From contig CAVZZO010000003.1 in NCBI GenBank assembly GCA_963779755.1, positions 768,001 to 832,000 on the forward strand: DNA of 64,000 bases, written 5' to 3'. This document shows positions 3,065-15,971 of the stretch, piece by piece. A model generated the notes under the pieces. That model was not told the origin of the DNA. It searched no databases and saw only the letters and a list, made by a program, of their open reading frames with translations. Both the position numbers and the translations under genes were made by a program. The DNA is from an uncultured Gemmatimonadales bacterium. GTDB taxonomy: Bacteria; Gemmatimonadota; Gemmatimonadetes; Gemmatimonadales; GWC2-71-9. Positions within the stretch are counted from its first letter, which is position 1; every line of letters starts with the position of its first letter.

Positions 3065-3526
3065 ATGAACCCCTCGATGCCGGGTGCTGAGACTACCCGC
3101 TGGCAGCCCGGCTTCAACGAGTACATCATGGGCGGCATCGGGCTGCTCTTCTTTCTCGGCATCGTCATCGTCGGCATCGTCTATCTCTTTCCCCCGGCGC
3201 ACCTGCAGCTTTCGGAGCTGCAGCCCGCCTATCGGGTCACGGCCGAAAGCAACTTCCCCGTCAAGGCCAGCCGGGTGGTGAACTGGGGCGACGAGATCAT
3301 CCTGGTGGTGCGGACCGACGAGCAGGCCTTCGTCGCGCTGCAGGGGGTGGCCCCCAGCGACGGCTGTATCCTCCGCTGGGACCCGACCTCTCTGCGGGTG
3401 CTCTCCCCCTGCAGTTACCTGGTGTACGATCTGCACGGCAACGTGGTGCGGGGCCTGACGACCGTGCCCCTCCGGCGGTACGCCGTCTTCGTACGCGACG
3501 GCGTCGTCTACGTAGCGAGGTCCTAG
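3065..3526 (+). CDS. Membrane-anchored Rieske-fold protein lacking [2Fe-2S] ligands
   Basis: N-terminal TM helix; Rieske scaffold ALQGV-APSDGC-ILRW...VL-SPCSYL-VYDLHGNVVRG...PLRRY; immediately precedes cytochrome b. Confidence 0.8.
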   Translation: MNPSMPGAETTRWQPGFNEYIMGGIGLLFFLGIVIVGIVYLFPPAHLQLSELQPAYRVTAESNFPVKASRVVNWGDEIILVVRTDEQAFVALQGVAPSDGCILRWDPTSLRVLSPCSYLVYDLHGNVVRGLTTVPLRRYAVFVRDGVVYVARS

Positions 3527-4816
3527 ATGACGGCAGAGGACAAGGGCGGATTCCGCGGCTGGTGGGCCCGGTTCCGGGACGACCTCAAGGCCAGCACCGA
3601 CGCCAGCCTGCTGGGACTGCTGCGGTTCCTGGGCATCCTCTACGGGCCCATCGACACCCGGCTCCCCATCGACCAGGCCTTCAGGAAGGCGCTGCGCAAC
3701 CGCATATCCCGCTATGCCGGCTGGCGCCAGGCCTTCGGCGGGATCACCTATCTGCTGTTCATCATTCTGGTGGTCACGGGCGTCCTGCTGTCCTTCTACT
3801 ACCGGCCCTCGGCCGAAGAAGCCTATCCCAGCATGCAGCACATCGTCTCCGGTGTGCACTTCGGCTGGCTCATGCGGGACCTGCACGTCTGGGGCGCCAA
3901 CCTGGTGGTCCTCGGGGCCCTGGTTCACATGGGCCGGGTCTTCTTCAGCGCGGCCTACAAGCCGCCGCGGGAAACCAACTGGCTGATCGGCGTCCTGCTG
4001 CTCTTCCTCATCTTCGCCTTCGGCGCGACCGGTTACCTGCTGCCCTGGGACCAGGGCGCATACTGGACGGTGACCGAAGGCCTCGGCGTGGTGAGCCGGA
4101 TTCCGCTGCTGGGCGGCAGCGTGACGGAAATCCTGCGGGGTGATCCCATCGTCTCGGGCGCCACCCTGAGCCGGTTCTTCGCGCTGCATGTCATTGTGCT
4201 GCCCTGGATCGCTCTGGCCCTCCTGGTGCTGCATTTCACGCTGGCCCGCAAGCACGGTGTCGCCCCGCCACCCGATGTCGTCGGCGAGTCGACCCCCGTG
4301 CGCGACGGCCCGCCCTTCTGGCCGCACTACGCCATCCGCTCGCTCATTGTCGCCGTGCTGGTGGTGGCTCTGGTCACCACGGTGGCGATCCTGCTGCCGC
4401 GGCCTACCGGCGCGGCCGCTGATCCGGGACAGCCGCCCAATTACCTCCTGTCGACCTGGATCGTGGCCGACGTCTCCCGGGCGCTGATCTACTATCTCGG
4501 TTCCTGGGGCATGGGCCTGTTCGTCCTGCTCGGGCTGGCGCTGGTCCTGCTGCCGCTGTTCGACCGGACGCCGGAGCGTCGCCTGCGCCGCCGCCCCGCC
4601 GTCGCGGCGCTGGGGATCGTGTTCTTCCTGTCCTTCGCCCTGGCCTGGGCCGCCGGGTGGCGGCTGCGCACCGTCCCGGTGGCCACGTCGGGTGAGCTGA
4701 CGCCCTTCACCACTCCGGTGGATACCGTGCCCGGCAAGCCGCTGCCCACCTTGAACCCCGAAGCCCCGCCCATGCCCGCCACCGATTCGCTGAACCGGGG
4801 AGGGCAGCAGCCATGA
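3527..4816 (+). CDS. Cytochrome b of bc/b6f type (b6 + subunit IV-like fused)
   Basis: Four heme b His (RDLHVW...LVHMGR; FFALHV...VLHF), YKPPRETNW, TGYLLPWDQGAYW; PEWY motif replaced by LSTW. Confidence 0.93.
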   Translation: MTAEDKGGFRGWWARFRDDLKASTDASLLGLLRFLGILYGPIDTRLPIDQAFRKALRNRISRYAGWRQAFGGITYLLFIILVVTGVLLSFYYRPSAEEAYPSMQHIVSGVHFGWLMRDLHVWGANLVVLGALVHMGRVFFSAAYKPPRETNWLIGVLLLFLIFAFGATGYLLPWDQGAYWTVTEGLGVVSRIPLLGGSVTEILRGDPIVSGATLSRFFALHVIVLPWIALALLVLHFTLARKHGVAPPPDVVGESTPVRDGPPFWPHYAIRSLIVAVLVVALVTTVAILLPRPTGAAADPGQPPNYLLSTWIVADVSRALIYYLGSWGMGLFVLLGLALVLLPLFDRTPERRLRRRPAVAALGIVFFLSFALAWAAGWRLRTVPVATSGELTPFTTPVDTVPGKPLPTLNPEAPPMPATDSLNRGGQQP

Positions 4817-6066
4817 CCGGCATGACACGACTCGCCCTGGTTTTCGGCGTCCTCCTGGCCCTCGCGCCGGCCGCGGCCGCGCAGTCGCCGCTGCGCGGCG
4901 GGATGCCGCCGGCCGACACGGTGAATAACTGCCTGCTCTGCCACGCGGAGCAGCGGCAGGCGGCCGAGGAAGGGGTCCATTCGGAGCACGGCATCCGGTG
5001 CATCACCTGTCATGGGGGCGACGCCACGGCCCGGGTGCTGCCCGCCGCCCACCAGGGTCGCTTCCGGGGCAAACTGGACAAGGTCCAGACCGCGCAGTTG
5101 TGCGGCTCCTGCCATTCGGATCCGGACAAGATGCGGGAATTCGCGCTGCCCACCGGGCAGCTGGCGGAGTTCCGGACCAGCAAACACGGGCAGCTGCTCT
5201 TCGGCGCCCATGACGGCAACGCCCCGACCTGCACCGATTGCCACGGCACCCACATCATCTACCCGCCGGATGATGCCCGGAGCCACGTCTACCCGACCAA
5301 CATCCCCGGCACCTGCGCGCACTGCCATTCGGACGACAAGCTGATGGCGAAGTACAAGCTGAAGACGGGGCAGTTCGAAGCGTTCCGGAGCAGCGCGCAC
5401 GGCAAGGCCCTCTACCAGCAGCAGAACTTCGCCTCGCCGACCTGCGTCGGTTGCCACGGGGCGCACTCGGCTCTGCCGCCGACGGTGACCGAGATCGCCA
5501 ACGTCTGCGCCCGCTGCCACGCCCTGGTGGGGCAGGCCTTTGCCTCGGGTCCGCACGGCGCCGCGGCGCGGGCCGGCCGGATCGACGGATGTCTGGCCTG
5601 CCACAGCAATCACGGTACCGAGGGCGTGCCGGTGGATTCGATCAGCGCCACCTGCGACAAGTGCCATGCGTCCGACACTCGCCTGCACCAGATGGGGGTG
5701 GACCTGCAGCGACGGCTGACCCAGGTCTCGGCGGACATGGAGTCCGCCAGGCGGGCCATCGCCGAGCTGCAGGTGGCGGGGGAGCGGGTGGGTGACTACC
5801 GCTTCCGCTACCAGAGCGCGCTCACCTCCTACCTGGAAGTGGGCCAGGTCCAGCACAGCCTGGACTTCACCCGGCTGGACGATCTGGAACGGAAGGTCCG
5901 GTCCATCTCGGTGGATCTCGGAGCCGCCGCGGAGGTCAACAGCGAGCAGCACTGGGAGCGGAAGCTGCTGCTGCTGCCGGTCTGGTTCCTGGCGCTGTCG
6001 GCCGCGCTGCTCGGCTGGCTGGCGTTGCGGGCGCTCAAACGGGCGGGCGGGGATCGGGAGGTCTGA
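4813..6066 (+). CDS. Periplasmic 9-heme cytochrome c with C-terminal membrane anchor
   Basis: Signal peptide, 9 CxxCH, helical region, C-terminal TM helix. Confidence 0.92.
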   Translation: MTGMTRLALVFGVLLALAPAAAAQSPLRGGMPPADTVNNCLLCHAEQRQAAEEGVHSEHGIRCITCHGGDATARVLPAAHQGRFRGKLDKVQTAQLCGSCHSDPDKMREFALPTGQLAEFRTSKHGQLLFGAHDGNAPTCTDCHGTHIIYPPDDARSHVYPTNIPGTCAHCHSDDKLMAKYKLKTGQFEAFRSSAHGKALYQQQNFASPTCVGCHGAHSALPPTVTEIANVCARCHALVGQAFASGPHGAAARAGRIDGCLACHSNHGTEGVPVDSISATCDKCHASDTRLHQMGVDLQRRLTQVSADMESARRAIAELQVAGERVGDYRFRYQSALTSYLEVGQVQHSLDFTRLDDLERKVRSISVDLGAAAEVNSEQHWERKLLLLPVWFLALSAALLGWLALRALKRAGGDREV

Positions 6067-6069
6067 CCC

Positions 6070-8082
6070 ATGGCATCCCGGCCCGACCGGCGCTGGTCGC
6101 GGTTTCTCCGCATCCTGATCCCCGTCGTGATTCTCGCGATCACGCTCGGGGCCGTCGGCACTGTCGGCTTTGTGCAGCTCTCAAGCCAGCCCGGCTTCTG
6201 CAAGAGTTGCCACATCATGAAGCCGTACTACCAGTCCTGGACCACCTCCACCCACCGCGACGTGCCCTGCATCGAGTGCCATATCGCGCCGGGCATCAAG
6301 GCCGAGGCGATGACCAAGGTCCAAGCGGCGAACATGGTGGTGAAATACTTCACCGGCGCGTACGGCACCCGCCCCTGGGCGGAGATCGACGATGCGGCCT
6401 GCCTGCGCTCCGGCTGCCATTCGGAGCGGCTGATCGAGGGCGAGGTGGACTTCAAGGGCGTCCGCTTCGACCACACCAAGCATCTGGGCGAGCTGCGGCG
6501 CGGCATCCAGCTGCGCTGCACCAGCTGCCACTCGCAGATCGTCCAGGGGACCCACATCGCGGTTACCGAGGGCACCTGCTTCCTCTGCCACTTCAAGGAC
6601 CGGCCCCAGGGCAGCCCGGTGGCCGGCTGTCTCGGCTGCCATCCGTCGCCGCCCCGGGTCACCTCGAAGGAAGGCTACGTCATCGACCACTCCCAGTACG
6701 TCAAGGACCGGGTCGACTGCCTCTCCTGCCACAACCAGGTCACGCACGGCACCGGGGACGCCGACCAGGCGCGCTGCGTCAGCTGCCACAACGAGCCCGC
6801 GCGTCTGGCCGAATTCAAGAACCCGACCCTGCTGCACCAGGTGCACGTCGCCGACCACCACGTGGCCTGCATCCAGTGCCACACCCCGGTGGAGCACCGG
6901 GTCGTCTCGCTGACCACCGACATTCAGCTGGACTGCGCCAGTTGCCACAAGGAAGTCCACCGCGACCAGCAGCGCCTGCTGGCGGGGGTGGGCGGCCACG
7001 GCACGCCGGTTACTCCCAGCTCGATGTACCTGGCCCGGGTTTCCTGCGTGGCCTGCCACGACGAAGCGAAGAAGCTCCCGGCACACGACACGGTCAAGGT
7101 GGCCGGCGAGGCCTCCTGCCTCTCCTGCCACGGCATCCGCTTCGCCAACGTGCTGCCCCGCTGGGAGCAGGAGATGCAGCGCAAGGTCCGGCTGGTGGAG
7201 CCGGTGGTGAACGCCGCGCGGCAGGCGGCCACCGCCATGCCCATGCGGCGGCGCGCCGAGGCCGACAGCCTGGTGGGCCTGGCGCAGGAGAACCTGGAAT
7301 TCGTGCGGGAGGGCAAGGGTGCCCACAATATCGTCTACGCCGACCGGCTGCTGCGGGCCGCGCTCGATCTCATCCGGCAGGCCTCCCGAGCCGGGCTGCC
7401 CTACCGCGCGCCCGCGGTCAACCTGGGGCCGCCGGTGAGCGAGAACCAGTGCCTCCAGTGCCATCTCGGCATCGAGCAGCAGGCGGGGACCTTCCAGGGC
7501 GTGGCTTTCAATCATACGGCGCACGTGCTGGGCGGCGGGCTGGAATGCACCACCTGCCACACCTCGTTCGCCAACCACGGCGGGACGACCCTCCAGTCGC
7601 CGACCGCGTGCAACAGCTGCCATCACCCGCTGATCGCACAGCGCAACTGCGCCACGTGTCACGCCGGGCAAGGCGGCGCCCCGGCGCGCACCTTTGCGCT
7701 GCCGGCGGGCAACTTCTCGCACCCCGAGCATGTGGCGGCCAACCTGGCGTGCTCCGCCTGCCACACCGCGCCGGTCATGAATGCGCGGGACCTGCAGTGC
7801 GACAACTGCCACGAGAACCACCACCAGCCCACGATGGACTGCCTCAGCTGCCACCGGGGCGGAGCGCTGGCCAAGCACAAACGGGACAACCACGTCGCCT
7901 GCGTGCAGTGCCACACGAGCGTACCCGATATCGACCGCTGGACGCGGCCGGTGTGCACCTCGTGTCACGCGGAGCAGGTGAATCACTACCCCGGGCGGGC
8001 CTGCGAGGTCTGTCACAAGGTCCCGCCCATGGGTCACGCGCGCCAGGCGGCACCTCCGAAGCCGCCGGCGGCCGGTTCCTAG
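6070..8082 (+). CDS. NapC/NirT-like membrane-anchored large multiheme cytochrome (21 CxxCH + 1 CxxxxCH)
   Basis: N-terminal TM then PGFCKSCHIMKPYYQSW..STH..VPCIECH (NapC/NirT-type start); 21 CxxCH plus CLRSGCH. Confidence 0.92.
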   Translation: MASRPDRRWSRFLRILIPVVILAITLGAVGTVGFVQLSSQPGFCKSCHIMKPYYQSWTTSTHRDVPCIECHIAPGIKAEAMTKVQAANMVVKYFTGAYGTRPWAEIDDAACLRSGCHSERLIEGEVDFKGVRFDHTKHLGELRRGIQLRCTSCHSQIVQGTHIAVTEGTCFLCHFKDRPQGSPVAGCLGCHPSPPRVTSKEGYVIDHSQYVKDRVDCLSCHNQVTHGTGDADQARCVSCHNEPARLAEFKNPTLLHQVHVADHHVACIQCHTPVEHRVVSLTTDIQLDCASCHKEVHRDQQRLLAGVGGHGTPVTPSSMYLARVSCVACHDEAKKLPAHDTVKVAGEASCLSCHGIRFANVLPRWEQEMQRKVRLVEPVVNAARQAATAMPMRRRAEADSLVGLAQENLEFVREGKGAHNIVYADRLLRAALDLIRQASRAGLPYRAPAVNLGPPVSENQCLQCHLGIEQQAGTFQGVAFNHTAHVLGGGLECTTCHTSFANHGGTTLQSPTACNSCHHPLIAQRNCATCHAGQGGAPARTFALPAGNFSHPEHVAANLACSACHTAPVMNARDLQCDNCHENHHQPTMDCLSCHRGGALAKHKRDNHVACVQCHTSVPDIDRWTRPVCTSCHAEQVNHYPGRACEVCHKVPPMGHARQAAPPKPPAAGS

Positions 8083-8095
8083 CAGGAGGAGCGTC

Positions 8096-9370
8096 ATGCG
8101 CACGATGATCCGCGTCGCCTGGATCCTGGGTGCGCTCGCCGCCGGCGCGGCGGGCGCCCGGCCGGTGTCGGCCCAGGAAGCCCAGCTCGTGGAATGCGCA
8201 AAGTGCCACACCAACCGTGACTTCCTCGCCAGCAACGCGACGAAGCCGGGCCAGGATACCCTGCTCTACGTGTCGCCCCACGCCCTGGACAGCACGGTGC
8301 ACCGGAGCCTGCGCTGTGTGGATTGCCACCGGGGCTACGGTGAGGGCTATCCCCACCGCGCCGACATGGTCGCGGTGCCCTGCCAGACCTGTCATGAGCC
8401 GCAGGGGCACGACTGGGACGCGTCGATCCATGCCACCAACGCCGAGACCCGCGGCGACGCACCCACCTGCGTGGGCTGCCACGGGTCGCACAAGATCTAC
8501 AGCGCGAGGGACCCGCGCTCGCCCACCTACAAGCTGAACGTCGCGGGCCTCTGCGGCCGCTGCCACAGCGACGCCAAGCTGATCGGTCGTTACTTCTCCG
8601 GCCCGGGCAAGGAAGCGGCCCGCGTCGCCGCGGTCGATTTCCCCAATAGCGTCCACGGCATCGCGCTCACCCGCGACGGGCTGGTGGTCTCGGCGACCTG
8701 CACCGACTGCCACACGGCCCACCGGGTGCTCCCCGCCGATTCGGCCAGCTCGACCGTCAGCCGGAAGAACATTCCAGCCACCTGCGGCAAGTGCCACGCC
8801 GGCGTGGTCGCGGTCTACGATTCCTCCGCCCATGGCCCGCTCTATCCCGAGCAGGCCGGCGTGGGGGGAGGGCACCCGCGCCCGGTGTGCATCGACTGCC
8901 ACTCGGCGCACGAGATCGTCCGGGCGGACCAGCCCGAATGGAAGTTCAGCACGGTGGCAAAGTGCGGGAACTGCCACGAAGAGCTGTACGAGACCTACTT
9001 CGAGACCTATCACGGCAAGGTCAGCCGGCTGGGCTCGGCGCTGGCCGCCAAGTGCAGCGACTGTCACACGCCCCACAACATGCGGCCGGCCAACGACCCG
9101 CAGTCGTCGGTGTTCGCCGGGAACCTGGTGGCGACCTGCGGCAAATGCCATGAGGGCTCCAGCGCCAACTTCGCGAAGTACTATGCCCATGGCGACCCCA
9201 CCAACCGGACGAAGTACCCGCTGCTCTACTGGCCCTACCTCCTGATGACGGGCCTGCTGGTGAGCGTGATGACCTTCTTCGGGATTCACAGCCTGCTGTG
9301 GCTGCTGCGCACGCTGATCGACCACCGCCGGAGAGCCGGCGCGGCGCCCGCCGGAGGGAGCGCCTCATGA
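8096..9370 (+). CDS. 11-heme cytochrome c with C-terminal TM (CbcL-like periplasmic half)
   Basis: Signal peptide; 11 CxxCH; TYHGK...AAKCSDCH; C-terminal TM ending FFGIHSLLW. Confidence 0.92.
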   Translation: MRTMIRVAWILGALAAGAAGARPVSAQEAQLVECAKCHTNRDFLASNATKPGQDTLLYVSPHALDSTVHRSLRCVDCHRGYGEGYPHRADMVAVPCQTCHEPQGHDWDASIHATNAETRGDAPTCVGCHGSHKIYSARDPRSPTYKLNVAGLCGRCHSDAKLIGRYFSGPGKEAARVAAVDFPNSVHGIALTRDGLVVSATCTDCHTAHRVLPADSASSTVSRKNIPATCGKCHAGVVAVYDSSAHGPLYPEQAGVGGGHPRPVCIDCHSAHEIVRADQPEWKFSTVAKCGNCHEELYETYFETYHGKVSRLGSALAAKCSDCHTPHNMRPANDPQSSVFAGNLVATCGKCHEGSSANFAKYYAHGDPTNRTKYPLLYWPYLLMTGLLVSVMTFFGIHSLLWLLRTLIDHRRRAGAAPAGGSAS

Positions 9371-10218
9371 CCCCACGCGCAATGAACGCCGCCGATCGCG
9401 GCGCCGGCCCCTACGTCTGGCGCTTCTCGGGATTCAACCGGGTGCTGCACGTCCTGGTGATCATCTCGTTTCTCGGCCTGGTGGCCACCGGTCTGCCGCT
9501 CCGGTTCTCCTATGCGGGATGGGCCCGCCCGTTGATGGCCGTCTTCGGCGGCCCGGTGGCCGCCGGCCTGATCCACCGCTTCTGCGCCATCATCACCTTC
9601 GGCTATTTCTTCGCCCATATCGGCAATCTGGCCTGGCGTTTTATCAAGGGACCCCACCGGATGCGGTTGCTCTGGGGCCCCGACTCCATGGTGCCCCAGG
9701 CCAAGGACGTCCGCGACGTGGTGCAGATGTTCAAGTGGTTCATCGGGCGCGGGTCCCGGCCGGACTTCGAGCGTTACAGCTACATGGAGAAGTTCGATTA
9801 CTGGGCGGTGTTCTGGGGCGTGGCCATCATCGGGACCTCGGGGCTCTTTCTCTGGTTCCCGACCTTCTTTGCGCATTTTCTGCCCGGCTGGGCCTTCAAC
9901 ATCGCCACCATCATCCATGGCGACGAGGCGCTGCTGGCCGCGAGCTTCATCTTCACCATCCACTTCTTCAACGTCCATTTCCGGCCGGAGAAGTTCCCTA
10001 TCGATACCGTGATCTTCACCGGCCGGGCCACGGCCGACTATATGAAGGAAGAGCACGGCCTCGAGTACGAGCGGGTGTCGGAAGCGGGCGCCCTGGAATC
10101 CCGGGTGGCGCCGCCCGCCTCGCGCGCAGCCTATCTCTGGTCGGTGGTCATGGGCTTCGCCGCCCTGGCGGTCGGCGTCTTCCTGATCGTCCTCGTGCTC
10201 TACGCCTTGCTCCGATGA
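9367..10218 (+). CDS. FdnI/HydC-type membrane cytochrome b (CbcL-like membrane half)
   Basis: RFSGFNRVLH...IHR...YFFAH...YSYMEKFDYWAVFWG...IIHGDEALLA...IHFFNVH; ATGA overlap with upstream gene. Confidence 0.9.
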   Translation: MTPRAMNAADRGAGPYVWRFSGFNRVLHVLVIISFLGLVATGLPLRFSYAGWARPLMAVFGGPVAAGLIHRFCAIITFGYFFAHIGNLAWRFIKGPHRMRLLWGPDSMVPQAKDVRDVVQMFKWFIGRGSRPDFERYSYMEKFDYWAVFWGVAIIGTSGLFLWFPTFFAHFLPGWAFNIATIIHGDEALLAASFIFTIHFFNVHFRPEKFPIDTVIFTGRATADYMKEEHGLEYERVSEAGALESRVAPPASRAAYLWSVVMGFAALAVGVFLIVLVLYALLR

Positions 10219-11747
10219 CCGCCATACATCGTCCGTCGACCGGCGCGGTACGGCTGGGCCGCCTGGCCGCCGCCCTGCTGCTGCTGGCGGCCGTCGCTCC
10301 CGCCGCCCGGGCCCAGGGATACCGGCTGCGGCTCGATTCCCGGCTTCAGGCGGTGTCCTTCCGGGGCATCACGATGGACAGTATCCCCGTCACCGACACC
10401 GTCACCGGCCCCACCGGCGGTCCGGTGTCGCCCGACGGCATCGAAGCCCACTGCTTTCAAGGCGTGGCTTATTGCACGGTGTTCCGGCCGGGCCCCGTCC
10501 GGCATACCGGCCCCTTCGTGACCAGCGCCGACCTCACGATGTGGGGCTTTGGCGTCCACGGCCTGAGTCTCCGGGTGAATACCCGCGTGGGCACCGACCT
10601 GGGCTCGGGCTCCTACTGGCCGGGCAACGATCCGGCGGTGCAGCTGGTGGAGGGCTATCTCGAGTACGCTGCCCCCCGCTATACCATCCGCGCCGGGCGT
10701 CAGATCCAGGCCGGACGGCTGGGCCTGACGGAATTCGACGGAGGCCGGGCCATCGTCCGCGATGCCAGCCATGGGCTGGAGGCCAGCGGTTATATCGGCC
10801 TGGGTCTGGGCCTGGGGTCGGTGCTGCCGGTGACGAGTCCGGCCCTCAATCCCCTGGACGAGTACCGGCCCAACCGCCGCCAACTGGTAGCCGGCGCCAC
10901 CCTGGGCTGGCACGGCGCCTGGGCCGATGTCGGGGCGGAATACCAGCGCGAGGTGGACCGGCGCTCCAAGTATTTCTGGTCCGAACGCGTGGCGCTCAAC
11001 GCCGACGTGCACCCGCTCCCCCGATGGTCGCTGGTGGGCGGCGCCGAATACAACATGGCCGAGGGCTGGCTGGGCAGCGCCGACGCCAGCCTGCGCTACA
11101 CCACTCGCGCGGTCACCGCGCTGGCGGGCTACCGGCGCTATCGCCCCTTCTTCGAACTGTGGACCATCTGGGGCGCGTTCAGTCCCGTGCCCTACAACGC
11201 CGTCGAAGGCGGCGTGTGGGTGACGCCGCTGCCCCAGCTCCGGCTGCGAGGCCACGCCGAGCAGTATTGGTTCGAGCAGAGCGACGCCTCGACCCCCCTC
11301 GTGACGGTCGAGGACAACGGCTGGCGCGTCTCTCTGGGCGGCACCTACACCTTCTCGCCCCAATGGAGCGTCGACGCCGGTTATCATGCGGAGTTCGGGC
11401 CCGGGGCCGCGTCCCGCGGCTACGACGCCGCCGTCACCTGGAACCCGACCGCGCTGCTCTCCCTCTCGGCCCATGGCGCCACCCTGGACCGCCCGCTGGA
11501 ATTCCGCTATGACGATGCGCGGGTGCGCTGGTACGGCGTGGAAGCCGAGGTGCGCCCCCAGGACCGCATCCGGCTCTCCGCCTCGGCCGACCGCTATGAG
11601 GAAAACCGGCGACGCCCCGATGCGGGCGGCATCGACTGGAACCAGTGGCGGCTGAGCGCCCGGATCTCGCTGTACTTCACCTCCAACGCCGACCAGCTGC
11701 CGCTGCCGCCCGCCGTGGGCCGCCGCCACAGGAGCCCGGGCCGATGA
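10215..11747 (+). CDS. Outer-membrane beta-barrel (porin of a porin-cytochrome pair)
   Basis: Signal peptide (A-R-A cleavage), alternating amphipathic strands rich in Y/W/G, ARISLYF near C-terminus; translationally coupled to a multiheme gene. Confidence 0.8.
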   Translation: MTAIHRPSTGAVRLGRLAAALLLLAAVAPAARAQGYRLRLDSRLQAVSFRGITMDSIPVTDTVTGPTGGPVSPDGIEAHCFQGVAYCTVFRPGPVRHTGPFVTSADLTMWGFGVHGLSLRVNTRVGTDLGSGSYWPGNDPAVQLVEGYLEYAAPRYTIRAGRQIQAGRLGLTEFDGGRAIVRDASHGLEASGYIGLGLGLGSVLPVTSPALNPLDEYRPNRRQLVAGATLGWHGAWADVGAEYQREVDRRSKYFWSERVALNADVHPLPRWSLVGGAEYNMAEGWLGSADASLRYTTRAVTALAGYRRYRPFFELWTIWGAFSPVPYNAVEGGVWVTPLPQLRLRGHAEQYWFEQSDASTPLVTVEDNGWRVSLGGTYTFSPQWSVDAGYHAEFGPGAASRGYDAAVTWNPTALLSLSAHGATLDRPLEFRYDDARVRWYGVEAEVRPQDRIRLSASADRYEENRRRPDAGGIDWNQWRLSARISLYFTSNADQLPLPPAVGRRHRSPGR

Positions 11748-13201
11748 GACTGCAACGTTCGGGATGGCTGCTGGCGGTGGTGCTGGGCTTCCTGCCTCTG
11801 GTGGCCACGCGGCCCGCTCCGCGCAGCCCGGATCACTTCGATCATGGCCGGCACGCACGACTGTTCCTCCAGTGCACCAGTTGCCACGCCGGCGCCGCCG
11901 ACAGCACGGCGTCGTTCTATCCCGCGCCCGAAAGCTGCGCCACCTGCCACGACGGAACGGTGCAGCGCACGGTAGACTGGCAGCCGCCGGCCGAGGCGCC
12001 GCGGCCCACCAATCTGCGCTTCACCCACGCGAGCCATGGCCGCCGGGCGGCACAGCACTACGGCCAGGATTCCTCCCTGGCCTGCATGACGTGCCATGCG
12101 CCGCAGGGCGCGGGCTGGATGCAGCAGGTTGAGCTGGCCGCCCTGCCCCGCTGCTTCGACTGCCACGGCGTGCAGGCGACCGCCCACCTGGCCGCGCCCG
12201 ACACGGCCTGCGCCACCTGTCACCTGCCGTTGCCGCAGGCGCAGGCCTTGACCCGGCAGGACGTGGCGAACTTCCCCAAGCCTCCCAGTCATGAACAGGA
12301 GGGCTTCGCGCTGGGCGGCCACGGCAAGCTGGCGGGACCCGTTTCGGGGCCGCGAGGCCAGTTCGAGGTTTCGCCGAGCTGCGCCACCTGCCATGCCCGC
12401 GACTTCTGCATTCGCTGCCATGTGAACGCGCCCGAGGTAAAGCAGATTCAGGCGCTCGCGCCCGATCCGCGGTCCCTGGCCCTCGAAGGGCAGTTGCAGG
12501 CGCCCCCCAGCCATCGGGCCGAGGGATTCGCGACCAGCCATGGCGGCCTGGCCCGCAAGAACATTCAGGCCTGCGCCACCTGCCACACCCGGGAGAGCTG
12601 CCTGGCCTGTCACCGGGGCCAGCTGCCGGTCTCCCAAGCCCTCTTCGAGGCGGGGCCGGGCCGGGGGCCGGGCGCGCAGGTCACCCGTCATCAGCCGCCG
12701 TCGCACGGCGCCGATTTCGCCGATACCCACGGACCGGTCGCGGCCGCCCAGCCGATGGTCTGCGCGACCTGCCATACCCGCGCGGAGTGCCTGGAATGTC
12801 ACCGGCCCACGTCGGCGACCAATCCCAACGAATACCATCCGCCCGCGTTTCTGACCCGGCACCCGGCGGCCGCCTACGCCCGGGAAACGGACTGCAACAC
12901 CTGCCACAATCAGCAGGCGTTCTGCACCGCCTGCCACGTGCGGGCCGGGCTCTACGCCAAGTCGCCGCTGCGGCAGGGCTTCCACGATGCCCAACCCGGT
13001 TTCCTGTTCGGACATGGACAGGCGGCACGGCAGAATCTGGAGAGCTGCACATCCTGCCATGTCGAGCGCGATTGTCTCACCTGCCACTCGGCACAGGGCG
13101 GCCGGCGGTTCAATCCGCATGGCGCCGATTTCGACGCCAAACGGCTCAAGCGGAAGAACCCGGAGATGTGCACAGTGTGCCACGGGCAGAACATTCCCTG
13201 A
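11744..13201 (+). CDS. Periplasmic 16-heme cytochrome c (c3/MtrA-like partner of the porin)
   Basis: Signal peptide; FDH..H and FTH..H motifs; 16 CxxCH. Confidence 0.92.
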   Translation: MRLQRSGWLLAVVLGFLPLVATRPAPRSPDHFDHGRHARLFLQCTSCHAGAADSTASFYPAPESCATCHDGTVQRTVDWQPPAEAPRPTNLRFTHASHGRRAAQHYGQDSSLACMTCHAPQGAGWMQQVELAALPRCFDCHGVQATAHLAAPDTACATCHLPLPQAQALTRQDVANFPKPPSHEQEGFALGGHGKLAGPVSGPRGQFEVSPSCATCHARDFCIRCHVNAPEVKQIQALAPDPRSLALEGQLQAPPSHRAEGFATSHGGLARKNIQACATCHTRESCLACHRGQLPVSQALFEAGPGRGPGAQVTRHQPPSHGADFADTHGPVAAAQPMVCATCHTRAECLECHRPTSATNPNEYHPPAFLTRHPAAAYARETDCNTCHNQQAFCTACHVRAGLYAKSPLRQGFHDAQPGFLFGHGQAARQNLESCTSCHVERDCLTCHSAQGGRRFNPHGADFDAKRLKRKNPEMCTVCHGQNIP

Positions 13202-13203
13202 GG

Positions 13204-13308
13204 GGAATCAGGAATCAGGAATCAGGAATCGGGAATCAGGAATCAGGAATCGGGAATCGGGAATCGGGAATCGGGAATCAGGATTCAGGATCCGGGGATC
13301 GGGGGTCG
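13204..13308 (+). repeat. Heptamer tandem repeat GGAATC(A/G)
   Basis: About 11 perfect and 4 degenerate units right after the operon stop codon. Confidence 0.95.
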
Positions 13309-13431: not shown

Positions 13432-14847
13432 ATGCCACAACTGGGCACAGCCGAATCTCCCTTGCGGGTCGCTATCGTCGGCGCCGGGCCGTCCGGTTTC
13501 TTTCTGGCCGAGAAGCTGCTCGGGCGCGACGATGCCGTGGTCCATGTCGACCTGTTCGAGCGCCTGCCGGCGCCCTACGGCCTGGTGCGCTTCGGCGTGG
13601 CGCCGGATCACGAGAAAATCCGCAACGTGACGCGGTCGTTCGACAAGGTGGCGGCCCGCCCGGGGTTCCGCTTCTTCGGCAATGTGGAAATCGGCTGCCA
13701 TCTCTCGCTGGACGATCTGCGCGGCTACTACCACCAGGTATGCTTCACCACCGGCGCCCAGACCGATCGGCAGATGGGCATTCCGGGAGAAGACCTGCCC
13801 GGGAGCCATGCCGCCACCGAGTTCGTCGCCTGGTACAACGGCCATCCCGACTACCGCGACCGGACGTTCGATCTCTCCGCCGAGCGTGTGGCGGTGGTGG
13901 GCGTCGGCAATGTGGCGGTGGATGTCGCCCGGATGCTCTGCCGGACGCCCGAAGAGCTGGCGGGCACCGATATCGCCGACTACGCGCTGGATGCTCTGGC
14001 AGAAAGCCGGGTGCGGGAGGTGTATCTCCTGGGCCGCCGCGGGCCGGCGCAGGCCGCGTTCACCAATGCCGAAGCGAAGGAGCTGGGCGAGTTGGCGGGG
14101 GCCGACATTCACGTCCTGCCGGAGGAGGCGGAGCTCGATCCCCTGAGCCACGCGGAGGTCGAGCGGGAGAATGATCGGCTCACCCGCAAGAAGGTGGAGA
14201 TCATCCAGGAGTTCGCCCATCGCCCCGAGGAGGGCAAGCTCCGGCGGCTCACCATCCGCTTTCTGGTCTCGCCGGTCGAGGTACTGGCGGGCGAGGCCGG
14301 ACGCGTGGCGGGCCTGCGGCTGGCCCGCAACCGGCTGGAACCCGGTGGAGGGGGCAGGCTGAAGCCGGTCCCCACCGGCGAGTACGAAGACTTGCCGGTG
14401 CAGCTGGTCTTTCGCTCGGTGGGCTATCGCGGCGTGAGGCTGGAGGGGCTGCCCTTCGACGAGCGCCGTGGCATTGTGCCCAATGAGCGGGGCCGGGTGA
14501 TCGACCCCGACGGAGGCGAACCCTTTCCGGGCGTGTATGTCAGCGGCTGGATCAAGCGGGGCCCGTCAGGCGTCATCGGCACCAACAAGCCCGATGCCGC
14601 GGAAACCGCCGAGGCGATGCTCCAGGATGCCGCGCGGGGGGCCGTCTGGCAGCCCGAAAGGCCGGAGCCCGATGCCGCGCTGGCCCATGTGCTGGGCTGC
14701 CAGCCGCACTGTGTGCGCTACGAGGACTGGCTCACGCTGAGCCGGCTGGAAGCGGAGCGGGGCAAGGCGCAGGGCCGGCCGCGGGTGAAGCTGACCAGCG
14801 TCGAGGAGGTGCTGGCTGAGCTGAAGAGGGGGCAGGAGGGGGCGTAA
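13432..14847 (+). CDS. fprA: Ferredoxin-NADP+ reductase, adrenodoxin-reductase/FprA family
   Basis: IVGAGPSG, PYGLVRFGVAPDH, FVAWYNGHPD, GVGNVAVDVAR, GWIKRGPSGVIGTN. Confidence 0.93.
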   Translation: MPQLGTAESPLRVAIVGAGPSGFFLAEKLLGRDDAVVHVDLFERLPAPYGLVRFGVAPDHEKIRNVTRSFDKVAARPGFRFFGNVEIGCHLSLDDLRGYYHQVCFTTGAQTDRQMGIPGEDLPGSHAATEFVAWYNGHPDYRDRTFDLSAERVAVVGVGNVAVDVARMLCRTPEELAGTDIADYALDALAESRVREVYLLGRRGPAQAAFTNAEAKELGELAGADIHVLPEEAELDPLSHAEVERENDRLTRKKVEIIQEFAHRPEEGKLRRLTIRFLVSPVEVLAGEAGRVAGLRLARNRLEPGGGGRLKPVPTGEYEDLPVQLVFRSVGYRGVRLEGLPFDERRGIVPNERGRVIDPDGGEPFPGVYVSGWIKRGPSGVIGTNKPDAAETAEAMLQDAARGAVWQPERPEPDAALAHVLGCQPHCVRYEDWLTLSRLEAERGKAQGRPRVKLTSVEEVLAELKRGQEGA

Positions 14848-14854: not shown

Positions 14855-15140
14855 GGCCCTGGTCCGCCGCATGTGGAATCTTGGCAGCGGTAGCCGCACT
14901 CGAATGCCCGTCCACCGGAATTGCGACAGCAGCTCCGGACCGCGCCTGGGCCCGGGGGATGACGGCTTGCTCCCCTGATCACGGCGCCCCTTGCGGATGG
15001 CTCGTCCGGACTGCATGCTCAGGGTGATCCTCGTCAGAACGCCTCCTCCCTCATGTCCCGATCCCTGAAATTGTCACAGGGGGCGTGGATGTTGGGGGAT
15101 GCGGACCACACGGACATTCACCCGGTGCAGGGGGACCAGC

Positions 15141-15971
15141 ATGAGCCACACCTTCGCCGTCAGGCCAACCGGCGAGCGGGAAGGCGCCCCGCGAGCGCGG
15201 ATGCTCCCAGGCACGGTGTTCGTGGGGCACCACGGCCCACCACTTGTCTTTCGCCTGCTTCGGGCGGGACGACCTCCGCTCCGCCTGGAGGATGCCGGCC
15301 AGGTGCTCGCGATCTGGCGCCGGGCGTTGCAGGCGCGGTCGGTGCAGCCGGTCCCGGAGATCATCTCGGGGCATCCGCCCGGGAGCACGCGGGCGGCGCC
15401 GCGGCCCAGCGCGCGGGCGCACCTCGCATTGCTGCCCTGGCCGCAAGCGGATGGCACCGGCCGCCTGATGCTGGGCGGCGTTGCCGCTTCTCTTCCCCGC
15501 AGCACCTCGGCCGAGGATCGCCGGCTGGCCAACCACGCACTGGCCGTCGTTCGCCGGCTCACGTTGGGCAGCCTCGGCGTCTGGGACCTGGAGCCCGTCG
15601 CGAGGGAAGATGGTGCCCAGTCAGGCAAAGGGCCTTCGCGCATCTGGACTACGCTGACGCCGTTCGTCTTTGGCCGCTATCCGCGGGACCCGTGGGGCGC
15701 GAAGGCCCAGACGATGGTAACTGAGGCATGCGGGATCGCCGGCCTGCCCGAGCCGGTGCGGGTGGAGACCGGCCGGCAAGCCTGGCTCCCCGGCGTGCCG
15801 CCGGCCTCCGGCTTTCCGCCGCTCTGGCACCGGCCGGGTCGGCCGCGGTCGTTTCATGTACACGTGCGGCTGGAGTTCGCTGAGCCGGTGGAGGGACCGG
15901 TGCTGGTGGGGGCGGGGCGGCATGGGGGGTATGGGGTGTTCGCCGACTACGATCGAAGGGTGATTCCATGA
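15141..15971 (+). CDS. csb2: Stand-alone C-terminal (Cas6-like) half of type I-G Csb2
   Basis: PEIISGH...HLALLP...SRIWTTLTPFVF...HVRLEFAEPVEGPVLVGAGRHGGYGVF (Gly-rich RAMP loop); no Cas5-like N-terminal half. Confidence 0.75.
   Translation: MSHTFAVRPTGEREGAPRARMLPGTVFVGHHGPPLVFRLLRAGRPPLRLEDAGQVLAIWRRALQARSVQPVPEIISGHPPGSTRAAPRPSARAHLALLPWPQADGTGRLMLGGVAASLPRSTSAEDRRLANHALAVVRRLTLGSLGVWDLEPVAREDGAQSGKGPSRIWTTLTPFVFGRYPRDPWGAKAQTMVTEACGIAGLPEPVRVETGRQAWLPGVPPASGFPPLWHRPGRPRSFHVHVRLEFAEPVEGPVLVGAGRHGGYGVFADYDRRVIP

Follow-up and report, generated by a model that had tools for sequence, protein, structure and literature searches.

Porin-cytochrome gene clusters that contain petB and petC group barrel, multihaem and bc-type genes, as does the locus described here (PMC13264449 and, for PCC3/PCC4, PMC5566968, in the text available for each). 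In those portions of text, petC is treated as an ordinary Fe-S subunit and ligand loss goes unmentioned (PMC13264449), and PCC3/PCC4 are defined by a five-helix inner-membrane protein with SGXXG and WX3HX13H (PMC5566968). For bc-type Rieske proteins, the accessible part of PMC13673990 describes the membrane anchor as an uncleaved twin-arginine (Tat) signal, and passages of PMC7908018 describe a flexible neck in the bc1 Rieske protein and, in Rhodobacter, a Leu of box I by which the Qo site is sensed. We found no description of a Rieske/cytochrome b pair lacking the cluster in open-access paper text. The string "Gemmatimon" is absent from the main text of the phylogenomic surveys as far as that text is accessible, and their per-sequence motif lists sit in supplements.

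Such a pair is encoded in the genome of an uncultured Gemmatimonadales bacterium, within a stretch of 64,000 nucleotides that is hereafter called the window. The module is a single-origin derivative of the Rieske/cytochrome b complex, and by its defining features it falls outside the Q-cycle family.

A Rieske fold that lacks the cluster ligands

An open frame on the forward strand of the window (positions 3065 to 3526) encodes a protein of 153 aa with a single N-terminal membrane helix and no twin-arginine motif. The membrane anchor spans residues 21 to 39 by hydropathy (positions 3125 to 3181, forward strand) and residues 17 to 41 in the AlphaFold model. The product scores under the Pfam cut-off and was not picked up in a PF00355 search of the genome. 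Its AlphaFold model (pLDDT 91.4) has the Rieske beta-fold, and the top Foldseek matches are 8hn2 (E 1.9e-8, TM 0.81 by target) and 9rk4.

A phmmer alignment with PDB 8hn2 (E 1.9e-8) places VAPSDGC over ICTHLGC and SPCSYL over CPCHGA, which puts A96, S98, S114 and S117 at the four ligand positions. Box I (APSDGC, positions 3350 to 3367, forward strand) has lost two ligands, carries a near-invariant Asp99 in place of Leu, and retains the disulfide Cys101; box II (SPCSYL, positions 3404 to 3421, forward strand) has lost two ligands and retains the disulfide Cys116. Neither the CxH of box I nor the CxxH of box II is present, and the putative disulfide pair C101/C116 is kept. The initial annotation, which had reported an intact frame without any of the four [2Fe-2S] ligands but with both disulfide Cys, was right in coordinates and motifs. 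Judged by alignment and predicted fold, the product is confirmed as a Rieske fold with none of the four cluster ligands.

A cytochrome b with its haem ligands and altered quinone sites

The Rieske-fold frame abuts a second frame (positions 3527 to 4816, forward strand), which encodes a long, seven-helix, petB-type cytochrome b of 429 aa with a conserved N-terminal extension. This product matches PF00033 (E 4.9e-48) and has the petB fold with four haem His (H120, H134, H221 and H236), all of which are kept in 120 of 120 homologues. Here and below, the cytochrome b homologues are the best 120 of 658. None of these 120 has a PEWY-type motif. In-register alignment with the PVWY of 8smr and the PEWY of an intact paralogue identifies the Qo motif as S309-T310-W311-I312 (positions 4451 to 4462, forward strand), which keeps only the Trp and fits none of the listed motifs (PEWY, PDWY, APWY, PDWF, PPWF, GPWF and PVWY). 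Thus, the previously noted loss of PEWY and retention of the four haem His both hold, but the replacement given, LSTW, is shifted by one residue and should read STWI. Likewise, QAFGG (positions 3728 to 3742, forward strand) indeed lacks the Cys of the CxGG haem-ci motif, but this absence extends to all 120 homologues and also to the intact paralogue (YYLGG/YYFGG), so it does not count as degeneration.

In the cd1 helix (T181-V-T-E184, positions 4067 to 4078, forward strand), Glu or Gln occupies the pocket-lining Val/Ile position and Thr occupies the Qo glycine/alanine position (112/120); residue 177 is Trp in 99/120. We take this Thr position to be equivalent to the Rhodobacter Qo glycine, G158. 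On the N side, R241, H243, R271 and H268 are near-invariant (120, 118, 119 and 110 of 120, respectively). The bc1-type Qi His/Asp pair is missing: the position of the Asp is Ser (S272) in 105/120, and that of the His is Arg (R241), as in b6. The protein of the source genome has Tyr/Gln at 63, 68 and 268, where most relatives carry His. The P-side and N-side sites are therefore both non-canonical, yet neither is random in its choice of residues.

Ligand loss is old and accompanies loss of PEWY

Among the best 120 of 335 matches to the Rieske-fold subunit, query included, the four ligand positions are free of Cys and His throughout, and both disulfide Cys are kept in 120/120. A wider alignment of 100 rows contains one row with a single His, in box II. 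When 1.84 billion representatives were searched with a profile, 12 matches fell below 1e-30, and every one with both boxes covered has zero ligands; intact Rieske domains predominate among the weaker matches, where partial losses are scattered. The named records among the cluster-less matches are Gemmatimonadota. Strong matches (E under 1e-36) occur in 41 of 401 Gemmatimonadota genomes, across six families, and a further 20 of the 401 have weak matches only, those retrieved being intact Rieske proteins. A divergent cluster-less subgroup of 39 proteins, of which the 33 parsed by pattern are all ligand-less, also precedes PEWY-less cytochrome b, and a query from it found no match in 13 genomes of another class. 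The cytochrome b of this subgroup (L112–L114; P0127, P0272–P0308) has QVLW around the conserved Trp. Partial loss of box I ligands is seen in Rieske-fold proteins of about 195 to 230 aa (P0142, P0144, P0150, P0151, P0154, P0155, P0239 and others), many with RR motifs, that lie outside the cluster-less clade.

The two losses go together. After removal of three duplicates, there remain 49 Rieske genes with at most one ligand, of which 47 precede a non-PEWY cytochrome b, none precedes a PEWY one, and two lie in sequence that ends before the cytochrome b motif. All 55 four-ligand Rieske genes that adjoin a cytochrome b have a PEWY or PEWF partner (three additional intact genes had no cytochrome b within view). 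The proposed co-occurrence is thus borne out at every scorable locus, 47/47 cluster-less ones being without PEWY and 55/55 intact ones having a PEWY-type motif. In a 96-row cytochrome b tree (quick search, midpoint root), 45 PEWY-less sequences make up one side of a branch with an SH-aLRT of 97. Because these sequences form one clade, the loci are kin and not independent events, and the pattern is that of one loss, kept since.

Trees of the closest intact groups did not resolve the sister of the cluster-less clade. Two loci of family f12 (L084:8975–14048 and L085) have an intact Rieske gene and the order Rieske, b, 9-haem, 20-haem, an arrangement that is possibly the ancestral state of the cluster-less operon. 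They were tried as the sister group, but the 9-haem tree lacks resolution there, and they form a long branch in the cytochrome b tree.

Purifying selection on the pair, raised as a possibility at the outset, is apparent from a median dN/dS of about 0.2. The NG86 medians are 0.17 for the Rieske head and 0.24 for cytochrome b among 100 closer pairs (45 loci, identity above 70%, dS under 1.5), with a span of 0.05 to 0.37, pairwise estimates of this kind being rough in GC-rich DNA.

The export signal is also gone. A strict RRx(F/L)-hydrophobic motif is found in 0/120 homologues and in 0/39 of the divergent subgroup, and a looser RR pattern is found in 51/55 intact versus 5/49 cluster-less genes (7 of the 49 are short at the N-terminus). 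The anchor helix is present and the strict RR motif is missing; hence the helix does not qualify as an uncleaved twin-arginine signal anchor. The source genome encodes TatC despite its Tat-less Rieske-fold subunit. Loss of the Tat signal is an independent argument against a pre-inserted cofactor. None of the aligned close homologues retains CxH/CxCH, the pattern that the initial annotation had linked to recent decay. The absence of ligands in 120/120, the absence of the Tat signal (0/120) and the median dN/dS near 0.2 together argue against such decay, and they support a ligand loss that is old, conserved and coupled to loss of PEWY.

The neck of the subunit (residues 42 to 54, positions 3188 to 3226, forward strand) follows the family pattern PPxHLQLxELQP and is conserved and Pro/Leu/Gln-rich, whereas that of the intact paralogue is Ala/Gly/Ser-rich. 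The box I Leu position is Asp (D99) in 98 of 100 cluster-less rows, and in the same 100-row alignment the docking tip has a conservation of 0.84 against 0.74 for the remaining head, a comparison made with no significance test. From the conserved neck, the box I Asp and the conserved docking tip, we infer that the Rieske head of the cluster-less family is probably fixed and has a binding role.

Multihaem partners and genome context

The gene core, on the forward strand in the window, runs from the cluster-less Rieske gene through cytochrome b and the 9-haem gene to the 21-haem gene; the last two are present in 42/46 loci, where a multihaem cytochrome c thus adjoins the pair. The 9-haem cytochrome c (positions 4813 to 6066) has a signal peptide and is anchored in the membrane at its C-terminus; its gene overlaps the stop codon of cytochrome b. 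The 21-haem cytochrome c (positions 6070 to 8082), the fourth gene of the core, begins with an N-terminal NapC/NrfH-like domain. In the four loci that miss the 9- and 21-haem genes, three stop at contig ends and one is apparently broken. In this last locus (L075:8059–10263) the 9-haem gene seems broken and the 21-haem gene is missing, and the cluster-less pair is intact.

Accessory genes on the forward strand of the window are an upstream 8-haem cytochrome c (positions 1328 to 2932; 34/46 loci), an 11-haem cytochrome c with a C-terminal helix (8096 to 9370; 28/46), an FdnI/HydC-type cytochrome b (9367 to 10218; PF01292, TIGR01583; 25/46), a probable outer-membrane beta-barrel (10215 to 11747; weak Pfam match under cut-off; 18/46) and, adjoining the barrel gene, a 16-haem cytochrome c (11744 to 13201; 18/46), these counts being taken from cuts of at most 20 kb, many at contig ends. 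The 11-haem protein belongs to a CbcL-like split pair by resemblance only.

In the 9-haem protein encoded with the cluster-less pair, nine free His are invariant. His80, which belongs to these nine, is present in 40/40 cluster-less partners and missing in 20/20 partners of intact Rieske proteins, a difference that would fit loss of a high-potential haem if the putative ligand assignment holds. A complex prediction with cytochrome b, the Rieske-fold subunit, two haems and the 9-haem protein scored 0.66, and a control with cytochrome b replaced scored 0.60. Apparent cytochrome b/9-haem fusions in L065 and L070 were discarded, since one crosses a run of N and the other still has the signal peptide after a lost helix. 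The NapC/NrfH-like domain of the 21-haem protein (positions 6070 to 6400) has CxxCHxM and a conserved Lys. The acidic quinol-site residue, which we presume should follow six or seven positions on, is absent.

A promoter and terminator scan gave no signal above shuffles. Short tandem GGGAATC-type repeats occupy the intergenic region 3′ of the 16-haem gene (positions 13208 to 13300). A ferredoxin-NADP reductase-like flavoprotein gene (positions 13432 to 14847) follows the cluster in 1/46 loci, and was rejected as a partner on that count. Farther on lies a type I-G CRISPR Csb2-like gene (positions 15099 to 15971; TIGR02165 above cut-off). Elsewhere in the source genome, a second cluster of 8-haem, 8-haem, barrel-like and 16-haem genes stands beside an operon with NrfD-type and molybdopterin genes (G000:C1:711571–725656), and frames with 23 and 19 CxxCH motifs overlap in different reading frames (G000:C1:250030–253532).

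At 97% completeness and in 4 contigs, the source genome yields a single PF00033 match and nothing of the PEWY type; the cytochrome b of the cluster-less module is the only bc-type one found. Alternative complex III (ACIII), futalosine-type menaquinone genes and five haem-copper family matches above cut-off are present. With the intact module absent and ACIII present, the cluster-less module stands alone in this genome, and aerobic quinol oxidation has another route.

Among the retrieved loci, 17 carry intact and cluster-less modules within 20 kb. The intact paralogous module comprises a 9-haem gene, a Rieske gene (CTHLxC/CxCHNG, RRxF) and a 365-aa PEWY cytochrome b, and is often within the same cluster (L060:12126–15006, L124, L125, L127, L133 and others). 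Across 136 pairs from the same 17 genomes, divergence is somewhat faster in the cluster-less module than in its intact counterpart, with median identities of 59% versus 71% for Rieske heads and 61% versus 72% for cytochrome b. A third type of locus (L115–L118, L120–L123) has an intact Rieske gene and a PEWY cytochrome b to which a monohaem c is fused (about 485 to 500 aa).

A tentative non-bifurcating oxidoreductase and its alternatives

With neither cluster nor Qo site there is, by established knowledge, no bifurcation and no Q cycle (Kao and Hunte, in the part available), and the sequence prerequisites for bifurcated quinol oxidation are absent from this module. Of the interpretation in the initial annotation, the old, conserved and coupled losses are supported, the passage of electrons between b haems and the 9-haem cytochrome is a proposal, and the haem-ci argument carries no weight. 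The reading that we favor, at a little under an even chance, is a non-bifurcating menaquinone:multihaem oxidoreductase with a structural, fixed Rieske head and b haems that serve as a transmembrane wire. Quinone would react at a cytoplasmic-side, Qi-derived site, and electrons would run between quinone, bH, bL, the 9-haem protein and the 21-haem chain towards porin-cytochrome conduits. The empty head may be an immobile support, closing off the former Qo crater and holding the c haems in position. Such a loop would move charge across the membrane, so that proton-motive force would be built by inward flow and consumed by outward flow, the latter giving access to acceptors of low potential. The retention of two b haems beside 30 c haems makes a redox loop the simplest use, as in the Geobacter oxidoreductases to the extent that the available text describes them. 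Our preference is for a role in extracellular electron transfer at low potential, as a branch that complements either the intact, high-potential paralogue or ACIII.

Several points weigh against the favored oxidoreductase. Judged by its residues, the N-side site is no canonical Qi site either, and the new conserved polar residues in the old Qo pocket fit a remodelled P-side site equally as well as a docking surface. A c haem would have to get close enough to bL for tunnelling, with the Rieske head in the way. The NapC/NrfH-like domain of the 21-haem neighbor poses a further problem: if haems connect two quinone sites that face opposite sides of the membrane, a short circuit would follow in the absence of gating. 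As to the conduit link, the barrel and 16-haem genes are in only 18 of 46 loci, in 20-kb cuts with many contig ends.

The most serious competitor, although unlikely, is a remodelled Qo site, where quinol would be oxidized on the periplasmic side via Glu/Gln184, Asp315, Arg292 and Rieske Asp99 and its electrons would leave to a c haem. Indeed, conserved residues line the old pocket (E/Q184 in 115/120, D315 in 114, R292 in 120, W311 in 119 and S317 in 112), a basic residue stands at 318 or 322 in 42/42 aligned genome copies, and D99 is in 98/100; moreover, the Qo motifs of natural cytochromes b are diverse (Kao and Hunte, in the part available). However, the Pro, Glu and Tyr of the motif were lost all together with the cluster, and the conserved Rieske tip would block access. 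Also against it are the Trp at 177 and the Thr at the presumed glycine position, a bulky change at which (G158W) kills Qo in Rhodobacter (PMC3276305, in the section available). In the strongest form of this proposal, the same residues would make a rebuilt quinol site, a haem of the 9-haem protein, held by the empty Rieske head, would replace the cluster as first acceptor, and bifurcation would occur between two haems; we regard this form as fairly remote.

A doubtful alternative dispenses with quinone, such that the b haems would connect a cytoplasmic partner, docked on the N-terminal extension of cytochrome b, to the periplasmic multihaem chain. The extension is missing from the intact paralogue, its D25, R33, Y39, G40 and D43 are near-invariant (118 to 120 of 120), and both canonical quinone signatures are changed. 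Yet no cytoplasmic partner gene is conserved, the reductase-like gene at 13432 being confined to one of 46 loci. It is improbable that cytochrome b and the empty Rieske protein merely organize the 30-haem wire, with quinone chemistry left to the NapC-like domain or the FdnI-type b. The CxxCHxM first haem and conserved Lys of the 21-haem protein and the occurrence of FdnI-type b in 25/46 loci are consistent with such a scaffold, but invariance of all four haem His would be costly for it, and the acidic quinol-site residue is missing from the NapC-like domain at the position where we presume it to lie.

More remote still is a heterodimer, in which the module would pair with an intact Rieske/PEWY monomer as a Qi half or branch, or would borrow an intact Rieske protein. 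The 17 loci with both modules within 20 kb agree with this proposal, but the source genome and a second genome (G268, 93% complete) have one PF00033 match each, the former lacks a PEWY-type cytochrome b, and its other Rieske proteins have no adjoining cytochrome b. A hidden metal site, for an Fe-S cluster or otherwise, with Ser, Asp99 and the two Cys as ligands is very improbable. Conservation of S114 (99/100) and D99 (98/100), Ala or Ser at position 96 and two invariant Cys could accommodate it, but both His-ligand positions vary freely (8 residue types each in the 100-row alignment), 116/120 homologues contain only two Cys, 12/120 contain no His whatsoever, and the Tat signal is lost. Recent decay or a pseudogene, which the faster drift and the broken L075 9-haem gene might suggest, has a negligible chance and is refuted by ligand absence in 120/120, the coupling with Tat and PEWY loss, and open frames with dN/dS of 0.05 to 0.37 in six families that form one clade.

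Relationship to known systems

The defining features of complex III are the Rieske cluster and the Qo site, both of which the cluster-less lineage has dropped, along with the export signal that goes with the cluster. Still keeping the fold under selection, this lineage amounts to a natural knock-out of bifurcation. Two questions become testable: which non-redox functions a Rieske protein has, and whether a plain redox loop that serves extracellular electron transfer can be made out of a bc-type cytochrome b. The module also cautions that petB/petC annotation in such clusters need not mean a Q cycle. In an abundant uncultured group, it suggests branching between intact and cluster-less modules according to potential.

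With complexes of the b6f/green type (8hn2, the Chlorobaculum Rieske protein; cytochrome b6 of 7r0w, 1q90 and 2zt9), the module shares the Rieske fold, anchor and disulfide pair, the four haem His of petB-type proteins, a b6-like LPWDQ..YW, the Arg at the Qi position and the Rieske-then-b gene order. Unlike those complexes, it lacks the cluster ligands, Tat motif, PEWY and haem-ci Cys, and has b and subunit IV fused and an extra conserved N-terminal extension. The intact Gemmatimonadota module (e.g. L060, L084 and L095) has homologous Rieske, cytochrome b and 9-haem genes, and keeps the CxH/CxxH ligands, RRxF signal, PEWY and flexible neck that the cluster-less one does not.

Geobacter ExtOPQ likewise has Rieske/cytochrome b genes among multihaem and porin genes, but ExtO is described as a Rieske Fe-S protein, unlike the cluster-less subunit (PMC5877670, in the text available). 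The ExtP and ExtQ NCBIfam models score under cut-off here (215 of 290 and 21 of 150 bits, respectively). We take Geobacter Ext to be a member of subfamily L. That subfamily has a Pro-less Qo motif, S[A/G]WF, as compared with STW[IV] here (Dibrova; PMC5600118, accessible part). Geobacter CbcL/CbcBA, as far as the available text of bioRxiv 2021.04.15.440034 describes them, combine a dihaem b with multihaem c, have no Rieske cluster and work with acceptors of low potential. Their b domains are related to HydC/FdnI, a type represented here by the adjacent 9367–10218 product, whereas the 3527–4816 product (PF01292 below cut-off) is petB-type (PF00033) and its module has kept the Rieske fold.
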